Position numbers and translations under genes: made by a program. A stretch of DNA of 64,000 bases from Nitrospirota bacterium (GTDB lineage Bacteria; Nitrospirota; JACRHJ01). Positions 17,487-19,883 of this stretch are shown one piece after another; position 1 is the stretch's first letter, and every line of letters starts with the position of its first letter. Below the pieces are notes generated by a model. That model was not told the origin of the DNA. It searched no databases and saw nothing but the letters and a program-made list of their open reading frames with translations. The stretch spans positions 256,001 through 320,000 of the forward strand of contig CAVTDB010000003.1 of assembly GCA_963733375.1 (NCBI GenBank), read 5' to 3'.

Positions 17487-18699
17487 GCAGGGCGAAGGCC
17501 TCGATATGGTACGTCTGCGGGAAGAAATCCACCATCCGTAAAGATTCCACTGAATAGTCGTCTTGAAATTTATTTAAGTCTCGGGCTAACGTCGCGGGGT
17601 TGCAGGATACGTAGGCAATCATGCCCGGCATAATTGACAGAATTTTCCCGATACCCGCCTCCGATATGCCCGCGCGTGGCGGGTCCGCTATAACGGCATC
17701 GAACTTCTCACGGATGTTAAAACCGTCCACGCTTACGCTGACGAACTGGCAGTTCTCAATTTTATTCAGCTTCACGTTCTCTTTTCCGTCTTTGACGGAA
17801 GACCGCCCCTCCTCCACCGCGACCACCTTCCGGGCTAGGCGCGAGACGGGCAGCGAGAAATTTCCAGCGCCTGCATAGAGGTCGAGCACGGCCTTTCCCG
17901 CAACCGGTTTCAGACTTTCAAGTACGAGGTCAACAAGGGCGCGGTTAAGGCTCCAGTTGGCCTGGAAAAAACTCTCGGACGAAACGGAATATTTTATACC
18001 GTCCAGTTCGAGGTTCAATTTACCGGCCCCGAAATGCAGCGGCTGTTTCCCTTCGATCTCCACGCGGACTCCCGAAAAACCCCCGCCCAGCAAATCCTTC
18101 GAAACATCCTTCCAGACATGCCTGGTGGAGGACGGGACTTTTATCAGCGCGAGGGTTTTATCACCACGGCAGATATGCAGCTCCTGAGCGTCCGTGTTTT
18201 TAAGGAGCCTTTTCGCATTTATGAAGACCTCGTTTATCTCATCGACCATCAGCGGGCAGGAGCTTATGTCCACCAGGTCCCGCGAGTGCTCCCTGAAATA
18301 GCCGACCCGCCCGCCTGATATTTTGAACTGGCCCCTGTGCCGGTAGTTCCAGGCTCTCCCCGTCAGCGGCTCGGAAAGGGATAACTCCATTTTCCCTATC
18401 CTCTTAAGCGCCGATTTCAGGACTTCCTCTTTCAGGCCTACCTGCATCGGGTATGAGGCATACTGGACCTGGCATCCGCCGCAGACGCCGAAGTAGGGGC
18501 AGGGAGGCTCCACCCGCTCAGGCGAGGGCTCCAAAATCTTCCGTGCAATGGCGACCGAATAGTCTTTTTTCTCATCGAGTACCTCCGCCTCCACGGTCTC
18601 GCCGGGGATAGCGCCCTTGAGCATCACCACTTTGCCGTCCAGCCTCGCCACGGTATAGCCGCCGTACGCGGGCGGACCTGCTGTAAGTTTTATTTTCAT
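17464..18699 (-). CDS. RlmD/TrmA-family RNA m5U methyltransferase
   Basis: TRAM domain, CPYFGVCGGC Fe-S motif, SFFQAN, DLYAGAG, DPPRAG, YVSCNPATLARD, DFFPQTYHIE. Confidence 0.9.
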   Translation of the reverse strand: MKIKLTAGPPAYGGYTVARLDGKVVMLKGAIPGETVEAEVLDEKKDYSVAIARKILEPSPERVEPPCPYFGVCGGCQVQYASYPMQVGLKEEVLKSALKRIGKMELSLSEPLTGRAWNYRHRGQFKISGGRVGYFREHSRDLVDISSCPLMVDEINEVFINAKRLLKNTDAQELHICRGDKTLALIKVPSSTRHVWKDVSKDLLGGGFSGVRVEIEGKQPLHFGAGKLNLELDGIKYSVSSESFFQANWSLNRALVDLVLESLKPVAGKAVLDLYAGAGNFSLPVSRLARKVVAVEEGRSSVKDGKENVKLNKIENCQFVSVSVDGFNIREKFDAVIADPPRAGISEAGIGKILSIMPGMIAYVSCNPATLARDLNKFQDDYSVESLRMVDFFPQTYHIEAFALLSRRRRS

Positions 18700-18735
18700 G
18701 GATTTTTATATACGATTAAATCGCCGGATTTCCGT

Positions 18736-18865
18736 ATTCCCGAATGATTTAATCCTATTTGTCCGTCATTCCCGAGATGATTTACCTGTCCAGAGCGATA
18801 GCGAAGACAGAATGATTTAATCGGGAATCCAGGGTTTGATTTAAATTCCCGGATTCCCGCTTTCG
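18736..18865. repeat. CGTC-type REP cluster with a 36-bp insertion (18775-18810)
   Basis: CGTCATTCCCG[36 bp]AATGATTTAATCGGGAATCCAG; an uninterrupted partial copy at 18736-18754; inverted half GGATTCCCGCTTTCG at 18851-18865. Confidence 0.85.
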
Positions 18866-18880
18866 TCCGAGTTTGCTGTC

Positions 18881-18984
18881 GGGGGGAGCATTCTCTCCGA
18901 AAAATTATTATTCACAATTTCGCTTTAAGCCGCGTGAGTTTTATTTTACGTTCAAGATAATTTTTCTCCGAGAACGCTCCCCCC
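18881..18984. repeat. Family C ~100-bp inverted-repeat element, copy 1
   Basis: GGGGGGAGCATTCTCTCCGAAAAATTAT…ATAATTTTTCTCCGAGAACGCTCCCCCC; homologous copy at 47428-47522. Confidence 0.8.
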
Positions 18985-19749
18985 TCCCTCTTGCCTCTTC
19001 CTTTGCCGCTCGTCGCGCATATCTTTTCGCCGGTCCCAGGCGGACGGGTCTTCCGAGGCGGTAAGCGCCTTCCCCACCACAATTATTTTGAAGGCGTCCT
19101 CGTCCGCGAACCACTCCGGGTCAACGTCCTTTGCAAGCCTCTCGATTGTGGTATTTATAATCCCCTCGCCCGGCAGGGAAATCCGCGAGACTATCGCGAC
19201 CGGCGTATCGGAGTTATATCCTTCCAGCAGCTCGTATGTCAACTCTTCCGGCCTTTTGTTATTCATGAAGAGCACCATCGTTGCCTGGTGCCTGGAGAGC
19301 GCCCCGATAGTATCGGGACTGCCCTCTACGGTCTTTGGGGATGTTGCGATGACGGAATGGGCTGCGCCGGAGATGACGAACGTCCTTTTAAGCGCCGCCG
19401 AGGCCGCGTTAAGAACGCCGACGCCCGGGATTACTTCCGCGTCCGGGTAACGCGCGATTATGGACTGCACGGGCGAGAAAATGGCCAGGTCTCCGGGCAC
19501 TAAAAATACCGCGTCTTGCCCCTTCGCCAGCACGGAATCGATCTTCTCTGTCAGCTCCTTAAAATGGAAATCGAACGGGTCGTAATATTCCTTGCCTTCA
19601 AGCAGCGCGGCATAAGAGTCCTTGAAATGTCCCGGCGCGAACACGAGCGAGGCATTTTTCAATACCTCCATCCCGCGCAAAGTCAGAAGCTCCGGGTCCC
19701 CCGGCCCCCCGCCCACGAACCACAGCTTGCCGCATATGCTGTCAGACAT
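18952..19749 (-). CDS. CobM/CbiF-like tetrapyrrole methyltransferase
   Basis: FVGGGPGDPELLTLRG, PGDLAIF, IPGV…AASA, TPVAIV. Confidence 0.75.
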   Translation of the reverse strand: MSDSICGKLWFVGGGPGDPELLTLRGMEVLKNASLVFAPGHFKDSYAALLEGKEYYDPFDFHFKELTEKIDSVLAKGQDAVFLVPGDLAIFSPVQSIIARYPDAEVIPGVGVLNAASAALKRTFVISGAAHSVIATSPKTVEGSPDTIGALSRHQATMVLFMNNKRPEELTYELLEGYNSDTPVAIVSRISLPGEGIINTTIERLAKDVDPEWFADEDAFKIIVVGKALTASEDPSAWDRRKDMRDERQRKRQEGGGSVLGEKLS

Positions 19750-19783
19750 TAAAATTTTCCTCGATTTTTATTTCCTTAAAGCA

Positions 19784-19883
19784 CGTCATTCCCGCGCACG
19801 CGGGGAAAGATTTACCTGTCCAGAGCGAAACGGTTTACCTGTCCAGAGCGGAAGCGAAGACAGATAGCGAAGACAGAATCCAG
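19784..19883. repeat. CGTC-type REP containing two nested 36-bp elements
   Basis: CGTCATTCCCGCGCACGCGGG[GAAAGATTTACCTGTCCAGAGCG[AAACGGTTTACCTGTCCAGAGCGGAAGCGAAGACAG]ATAGCGAAGACAG]AATCCAG. Confidence 0.9.

Follow-up and report, generated by a model that had tools for sequence, protein, structure and literature searches.

The small dispersed repeats SDR1–8 of Nostoc and Anabaena, which Elhai et al. reportedly described in 2008, are said to be 21–27 nt long and to nest within their own copies. According to the available excerpts of three reports, SDR5 is inserted precisely between the third and fourth base of the HIP1 palindrome (PMC4390886), its function was still unknown in 2026 (PMC13756078), and SDR-like repeats were not found outside the Nostocaceae among the cyanobacteria examined (PMC5861425). 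MITEs (miniature inverted-repeat transposable elements), as defined in the accessible part of another source, exceed 100 bp and carry terminal inverted repeats and flanking direct repeats (PMC3184786). Insertion sequences (IS) of the IS110/IS1111 type, such as ISPpu9, target the hairpins of repetitive extragenic palindromic (REP) sequences, as stated in the available portion of a further report (PMC12288879). Here we analyse a unit of 35–36 nt that interrupts REP-like hairpins, and copies of itself, in a 64,000-nt stretch of DNA (the window) from a Nitrospirota bacterium.

Comparison of closely related genomes indicates that this unit is a real, recently active, very small mobile element. Judged from these alignments, copies are gained between such genomes as exact 35–36-nt blocks, and they are probably lost as exact blocks of the same length. 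We think it probable that the units form a genus-restricted family of very small (35–36 nt), non-coding, non-autonomous mobile repeats confined to uncultured Nitrospirota. More tentatively, they may constitute a further line of very small mobile elements, phylogenetically independent of the first and moved without a footprint by an unrecognised activity, possibly a host housekeeping enzyme, that would cut single-stranded DNA at G|AA in hairpin loops.

A short unit restricted to one genus

The window is C3:256001–320000 of genome G000, a 2.39-Mb assembly of 26 contigs that is 81% complete and 5% contaminated. G000 and 40 relatives, 41 genomes in all, were searched. The units are carried by G000 and its congeners G001 and G002, all three of them metagenome bins (81, 97 and 94% complete). 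For the comparisons between carriers we used the whole of G002 (8 contigs) and the unit-carrying loci of G001.

In the consensus unit, a leader of 6 nt that is rich in purines precedes a 17-nt core, after which come one or two variable bases and AGCGAAGACAG. The original prediction had described six variable nucleotides followed by a fixed part; this layout holds, but the six bases prove to be a purine-rich leader that is specific to the subfamily. The unit had also been taken to measure exactly 36 bp, which is true of 40 of 56 non-redundant copies, while 13 measure 35 nt, two 33 nt and one 37 nt. An identical 36-mer beginning with AGATGA is present in 13 copies over the three genomes; the leader therefore belongs to the unit, and these identical copies are the mark of recent spread. 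The boundary of the unit can slide by 1 nt, the G before the unit being the same as its last G. Near the 3′ end lies one 5-bp stem, CTGTC/GACAG, which is real, as had been noted earlier, but weak (−3.1 kcal/mol as DNA, z −2.5). The ends, an A-rich leader and ...GACAG, are not inverted repeats of each other. Rfam returned nothing relevant in the region at E values up to 10 and no match at the gathering score in the whole window.

With up to two mismatches, the core has 38, 30 and 15 matches in G000, G001 and G002, respectively, and 0–1 in each of the other 38 relatives, which is the level of a reversed-pattern control. A longer pattern, applied to 12 genomes of the order, gave 27, 23 and 9 matches plus a single match in one other genus. 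The genome-wide search for further copies that the original prediction had called for was productive: an nhmmer profile built from 35 copies (E ≤1e-3) found 39 matches in G000, merging into 33 sites, and 14 matches at 13 sites in G002. Within the window itself, the 17-mer core occurs exactly three times, and at up to three mismatches there are five matches against 0.15 expected, a number reached in 0 of 100 shuffles.

Outside these genomes, the exact 17-mer was found in 39 public metagenome-contig loci, 14 of which are true units in the same kinds of context. The remaining loci are chance matches, many of them in a conserved stretch of UPF0004+Radical_SAM genes (one checked). Logan contigs bear out the unit contexts and the nest described below; the shares of these contigs are at most 0.15, contigs give no allele frequencies, and no RNA data set was among the holders listed.

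Among the chance matches, six loci (L181, L185, L196, L201, L205 and L213) have the exact core inside open reading frames (ORFs) of unrelated organisms. The ORF at L205 encodes a UPF0004+Radical_SAM protein, and in that frame the core would encode a similar peptide; this likeness may be a coincidence or a hint at the origin of the unit.

Two other origins were considered and rejected. The unit ends with GAAGAC plus 2 nt, which we take to be the site and cut offset of BbsI-type enzymes, but a link to Type IIS restriction was discarded because the hexamer GAAGAC is not avoided (observed/expected 1.01 in both G000 and G002). A CRISPR relic was dismissed as well, as neither G000 nor G002 contains CRISPR-like arrays. 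The most under-represented 6-mers in both genomes are the palindromes GTCGAC, CTCGAG and GAGCTC (observed/expected 0.27–0.37), a depletion that suggests restriction-modification pressure not connected with the unit.

Filled and empty sites in related genomes

When the 33 sites of G000 were compared with G002, six proved to be absences of the unit alone (gap lengths in G002/G000, in nt: C1 5939, 0/35; C11 15936, 3/40; C12 3747, −1/33; C16 69312, 0/38; C8 52902, 5/34; C9 31266, 0/35). Three sites are shared, and three differ in tandem copy number between G000 and G002 (two C10 sites with 2 versus 1, and C9 96469 with 1 versus 2). In a further three the difference is clean although partial or of larger size, in 15, among them both loci of the window, it extends beyond the unit, and three lack a collinear match. 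The reverse case is also found: a G002 unit at C4 293619 stands opposite an empty hairpin in G000. For 13 of the 27 G001 sites, two- or three-way alignments could be made, and in 12 of these the unit is missing from G000 and/or G002 with host hairpin or flanks intact; the 13th locus (L144) is a nest.

An example is C1 5939, where the flanks in G000 and G002 are 98.7% identical over 597 nt, with no indel other than the unit of 35 nt. A unit is also present there in G001, which is more distant (91.5%). In the filled/empty alignments there is no target duplication, and the ambiguity is at most 1 nt at most sites, so that the proposed insertion without target duplication is borne out by orthologous sites in three genomes. 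The original prediction had regarded copies of variable length, or copies without recoverable empty sites, as speaking against it. Lengths do vary in part (33–37 nt, with one partial insert of 29 nt), but empty alleles are plentiful in the comparisons of G002, G000 and G001. Filled hairpins keep differing loop sequences, drawn from the same repertoire as those of empty hairpins, and the pattern of spread is therefore not accounted for by gene conversion from one hairpin paralogue to another.

Units and nests in the window

The window contains three units, one of them split by another, in two REP-like hairpins. The sequence is as originally described, including the uninterrupted form of the first host.

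18736–18754, plus strand: uninterrupted partial paralogue of the host hairpin segment, ATTCCCGAATGATTTAATC, with direct and inverted repeat matches
18765–18774, plus strand: 5′ arm of the REP-like hairpin hosting unit 1, GTCATTCCCG, part of a two-hairpin MITE-like repeat
18775–18810, plus strand: unit 1, 36 nt, leader AGATGA, identical to the commonest family member
18811–18872, plus strand: rest of the repeat hosting unit 1, with loop and 3′ arm AATGATTTAATCGGGAAT, then a degenerate second hairpin
19785–19804, plus strand: REP-like hairpin hosting unit 2, GTCATTCCCGCGCACGCGGG, interrupted in its 3′ arm
19805–19827, plus strand: 5′ 23 nt of unit 2 (outer), leader GAAAGA and 17-nt core, profile positions 2–26
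19828–19863, plus strand: unit 3 (inner), complete, 36 nt, leader AAACGG, within unit 2 at GAGCG|AT
19864–19876, plus strand: 3′ 13 nt of unit 2 (outer), ATAGCGAAGACAG, profile positions 23–36
19877–19883, plus strand: remaining 3′ arm of the hairpin hosting unit 2, AATCCAG

Unit 1 is thus flanked by GTCATTCCCG and AATGATTTAATCGGGAAT, and empty paralogues of its host are found elsewhere, for example at C2 39428 of G000, which reads GTCATCCCCG|AATGCCTTAGTCGGGGAT. Unit 2 lies between CGCGGG and AATCCAG, and its insertion point, GGG|AAYCCAG, is reused at C9 60427 and C17 22330 of G000. Unit 3 has GAGCG of unit 2 on its left and ATAGCG on its right. All three are intergenic; they lie between genes of the minus strand, of which one encodes a tRNA-U5-methyltransferase-like protein, another a tetrapyrrole methylase, and the third is an unnamed ORF. 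A Logan contig matches positions 18673–18812, the region of unit 1, with 0 differences. In G002, window positions 18740–18872 are missing entirely, with 2 nt in their place, as are the REP module and the nest at the locus 19785–19883.

A palindromic repeat of about 115 nt adjoins unit 1 at 18871–18986, with 28-nt arms that are 86% complementary and a 48-nt spacer. Many copies of it, at 77–89% identity, occur in G000 and elsewhere in the family, other genera included (G001, G002, G006, G008, G009 and G011), and Rfam gives nothing for it at the gathering score.

The join seen in the nest of the window, GAGCG followed by the inner unit and A-N-AGCG..., recurs at C17 22330 of G000, at C46 of G001, in the metagenome contig L189 and in a Logan contig that continues into a GTTAC-type arm. 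This recurrence of the architecture, with independent Logan contigs among the examples, shows that the nest of the window is no assembly artefact. The right flanks of the window and C17 nests are 93% alike over 90 nt, and these two may not be independent. All inner units observed belong to the subfamily with an AAACG(G/A) leader.

Nests had been predicted to leave a readable order of events, and one orthologous series fits this well. Where a lipoprotein-like gene begins, there is no unit in G002 and one unit at C26 of G000 (with AAACGT as leader and AC as dinucleotide), and C46 of G001 has the unit of C26 with a 36-nt inner unit at GAGCG|AC. Later stages can be followed in the comparison of the full nest of L189 with C3 219942 of G000, where the outer 5′ half is followed by two 13-mers, which corresponds to a nest minus 23 nt. 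The orphan 13-mers at C3 219942, C25 151821 and L207 are therefore decayed nests.

Contig C25 of G000 ends in an array (151785–151881) that lies in a REP hairpin and consists of one unit, a 13-mer and another unit, and the repeats appear to break the assembly there.

Target sites and host hairpins

Base counts were made over 56 non-redundant sites, and hairpins were scored at 72 sites in the three carriers. In 46 of 56 cases a G precedes the unit, and none of the bases reaches more than 28 of 56 at any position from −2 to −6. After the unit follow A (56/56), A (52/56), A (40/56) and G (32/56), in a genome with 22% A. For half of the sites (36 of 72), the loop of a perfect hairpin with a stem of 7 bp or more is no further than 3 nt away, compared with 100 of 4998 random G|AA positions. 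Together with the filled and empty orthologues, these counts agree with the original prediction, in which a minimal unit is mobile and inserts into its own copies as well as into other hairpin repeats. The minimum free energy of reconstructed empty sites was not discriminating (mean −15.0 versus −13.4 kcal/mol for random G|AA positions), and the explicit perfect-stem test was used instead.

Four contexts recur. The first is a two-hairpin REP/MITE-like repeat, GTCATTCCCGCG...CGGGAATCCAGG...CCCCGACTAAGGCATTCGGGGATGAC, which units enter at three places, namely at GCG|AAGG in the loop of the first hairpin, at GGG|AATCC in the 3′ arm of that hairpin and at CCCCG|AATG at the second hairpin. The second consists of perfect 14–15-bp hairpins of the form GTTACTTTTCTTTC-loop-GAAAGAAAAGTAAC. 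The third is the unit's own loop, and the fourth unique DNA, including gene starts and ORF interiors. In the 14–15-bp hairpins the unit always stands between loop+G and the 3′-arm AAAG, read in the orientation of the unit, whichever way the host element points. A strict census gave 70 such hairpins in G000, 65 with loops of 2–12 nt (2–6 nt except for one of 12 nt) and five filled, and 58 in G002, 55 with loops of 2–6 nt and three filled. Under looser matching, 12 of the 38 copies in G000 and more than half of the 30 matches in G001 are in these hairpins. The orientation of units relative to neighbouring genes is mixed, and adjacent copies are arranged head-to-tail, never inverted.

Empty GTTACTTTTCTTTC-NNNN-GAAAGAAAAGTAAC hairpins, the main host of the unit, are also present in the window at about 52435, 54316 and 57497 (C3 308435, 310316 and 313497 of G000). 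Their outer stem bases co-vary between copies (GTTAC/GTAAC, GGTAC/GTACC, GCTAC/GTAGC), which suggests that the hairpin is being maintained. A longer repeat of about 110 nt contains it together with another hairpin upstream.

Units in and near genes

Units inside ORFs are read in one frame, as K-R-(L/I/F)-T-C-P-E-R-Q-R-R-Q. They are found between two domains of an NFACT protein (C9 of G000), at the start of a small ORF (C10) and ahead of a lipoprotein-like signal peptide (C26). An ORF for orotidine monophosphate (OMP) decarboxylase in G001 has the variant E-K-S-L-T-C-P-E-P-Q-R-R-Q, as read from the alignment, with a gap of 36 nt. At C9 31266 of G000 the NFACT ORF is continuous through the unit; the unit-less allele of G002 (C2 174975) shifts the frame, the net difference being 35 and not 36 nt, which reflects either a real frameshift or a homopolymer assembly error. 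At C25 122776–122811 of G000, a unit conserved among the three carriers stops 1 nt from where a tRNA-Leu gene begins, and it is antisense to that gene. It is probably the oldest copy, and it may lie within the promoter or leader of the tRNA. Annotators should be aware that units stand in frame in real genes (NFACT, OMP decarboxylase) and beside tRNA genes, and that they break assemblies.

The conserved copy beside tRNA-Leu and the tolerance of in-frame copies are what would be expected if the unit were an immobile functional motif, such as a protein-binding site or an RNA module, that was an original part of the host repeats, with all differences between genomes due to deletion. The host hairpins, however, are mostly empty, with normal loops (65/70 in G000 and 55/58 in G002), and the contexts of the units are of four kinds without relation to one another, with both orientations seen with respect to genes. 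There are nests with an un-nested orthologue, and copy numbers differ (39, 30 and 14) although flanks are 91–99% identical between the genomes. The motif has no Rfam match either. We find this explanation hardly credible.

Search for a mobilising enzyme and proposed mechanism

The original prediction had linked the unit to HUH enzymes of the IS200/IS605 type. A minimal non-autonomous derivative, moved by a Y1 HUH transposase (IS200/IS605 TnpA or RAYT) encoded on an unbinned replicon, would account for insertion without target duplication and probably precise loss, for targets in hairpin-forming DNA and for the cleavage context G|A shared by ends and target; metagenome bins can miss plasmids and phages. 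The gene content of the carriers does not bear this out. Y1_Tnp (PF01797) has 0 matches in G000, G001 and G002, while six of 14 control genomes are positive, and the Y1 or RAYT gene that had been expected next to the hairpin was thus not found in the three carriers. Nor is there any match to the TnpB Zn-ribbon in them. Only the G at −1 is conserved 5′ of the unit, where a tetra- or pentanucleotide would be expected, and TTAC, which had been named as an IS608-type target, is internal to the unit and not at the target. Where two subterminal hairpins would be expected, the unit has one, and it is weak. Measured against local GC skew, a proxy, unit strands divide 17:16 in G000 and 10:3 in G002, small numbers that include some shared sites. 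A parent element, recognisable as a pair of 5′ and 3′ unit halves enclosing cargo, was found neither in G000 nor in the 8-contig G002, and orphan 11-mers in these genomes are chance matches in coding DNA, except for the nest relics. A Y1 transposase as the mover is distinctly unlikely.

Other enzyme families gave little more. The three carriers have 0 matches to the IS110-type transposase (PF01548) and 0 to reverse transcriptase (PF00078), for which controls were positive in three genomes; a retroelement-derived repeat was rejected on this ground. DDE_Tnp_1 has no match in the carriers, a Resolvase match is limited to G000, and rve matches are common to the carriers but weak. For Y2_Tnp (PF04986) there was no match, and as none was obtained in the control genomes either, this result is uninformative.

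G|A is read at both junctions of the unit, left and right, at the self-target and at every other target, and the targets are enriched where DNA easily becomes single-stranded; because of this we infer a strand-specific cut-and-join reaction. It would most likely be carried out by a trans-acting enzyme, one outside the Y1/HUH transposases, TnpB, IS110-type enzymes and reverse transcriptases as far as these can be recognised in the three assemblies. In the mechanism that we propose, such an activity would cut one strand after G and before A and then paste the unit in. Entry takes place at G|AA, about half of the time at the border between loop and 3′ arm of perfect hairpins that belong to two other repeat families. 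It also takes place at one fixed point of the unit's own loop, GAGCG|AN, which gives rise to nests, and these then decay by losing one of the repeated halves.

The main alternative to a cut-and-join activity is template switching at stalled hairpins. Here no dedicated enzyme would be needed: a replication fork would stall at a hairpin, and the nascent end would pair with an A-rich flank through microhomology, copy about 36 nt and return. The enrichment of sites at perfect hairpins suits this explanation, as does the right flank, which is always A-rich like the unit's leader and its usual flank. So do the junction microhomologies AGAAA (C12 3747), ACCT (C10 41016) and ATGATTTA (unit 1), the variation of insert lengths from 29 to 38 nt (the 29-nt partial insert being that of C8 52902), the changes in tandem copy number, the deletions between 4–5-nt repeats (C10 41016, C12 3747) and the failure to find a transposase in the carriers. 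On the other hand, homology at the left junction, which is sharp, does not exceed 1 nt at most sites, and identical 36-mers stand in unrelated contexts. The self-insertion point is fixed although it reads G|AT or G|AC and is not A-rich, and slippage would not readily yield the precise absence at C1 5939, where the repeat measures just 1 nt. Template switching also gives no reason why just this sequence should be copied, and we regard it as unlikely.

Several observations count against a mobile element moved by cut-and-join. The mobilising gene was not found in the three bins, and mobility is read from genome comparisons; plasmids or phages with the enzyme could be missing from the bins. The unit's own hairpin is weak, and a replication-strand bias, which a fork-dependent single-strand mechanism might produce, was not seen in G000. 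The three units of the window have no orthologue lacking the unit alone, as whole host repeats are missing in G002. The direction of change, insertion or loss, is ambiguous at several sites; at C1 5939 there may have been precise loss in G002 or independent gain in G000 and G001. C10 41016, with its ACCT repeats, resembles an ordinary short-repeat deletion, and C8 52902, where only 29 inner bases are missing in G002, an ordinary deletion. The changes in tandem number at C10 and C9 96469 can be obtained by slippage.

Comparison with known systems

With IS200/IS605 elements and their small derivatives, and with REP/REPIN-RAYT systems, the unit shares the lack of target duplication, the apparently precise loss and the association with hairpins. 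It differs from the former in having no Y1 gene match, no fixed tetranucleotide and no pair of subterminal hairpins, and the known small derivatives are several-fold larger. From REP/REPIN-RAYT systems it is set apart by its weak hairpin, by head-to-tail copies without inverted pairs and by the lack of PF01797 in the carriers. IS of the IS110/IS1111 type likewise enter REP sequences, but they are about 1 kb long and encode a DEDD transposase, and PF01548 has 0 matches in the carriers. MITEs, like the unit, are non-autonomous and intergenic and produce filled and empty sites between relatives; the unit has neither terminal inverted repeats nor target duplication and is shorter than 100 bp. Rickettsia palindromic elements stand in frame in protein genes, are about 100–150 bp long and are strongly palindromic. 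The unit, too, is tolerated in frame, in the NFACT ORF and, as a variant, in the OMP decarboxylase ORF; we know of no description of nesting or of a G|AA target for the Rickettsia elements.

The closest analogue in kind is the SDR family of the Nostocaceae. Like SDRs, the Nitrospirota unit is tens of nucleotides long, dispersed and non-coding, enters other short palindromes or repeats precisely, nests within its own copies and is limited to one coherent group of genomes. The likeness is one of kind, and the unit may be unrelated to the SDRs in sequence. It also belongs to another phylum and is longer (35–36 nt versus, as reported, 21–27 nt); its G|AA target is defined, and its point of self-insertion is fixed. 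In full-text literature searches, by which subscription journals were mostly not covered, nested repeats of such size were not found outside cyanobacteria, and to our knowledge mobile DNA of a few dozen bases without terminal repeats, target duplication or a known mover has been described only as the SDRs of the Nostocaceae.

The Nitrospirota family would thus represent SDR-like behaviour in a distant phylum. To the SDR case it adds a sharp G|AA rule, a strong preference for hairpin loops, a fixed self-insertion point and many filled/empty pairs between genomes with flanks 91–99% identical, and these together make the mechanism directly testable. If an unrecognised activity does move the units, it would amount to a transposition chemistry without a described enzyme family. 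With its defined target, about 65 ready empty hairpins per genome and many differences among three genomes, the family would then also offer a tractable route into the SDR puzzle, which has been open since 2008.

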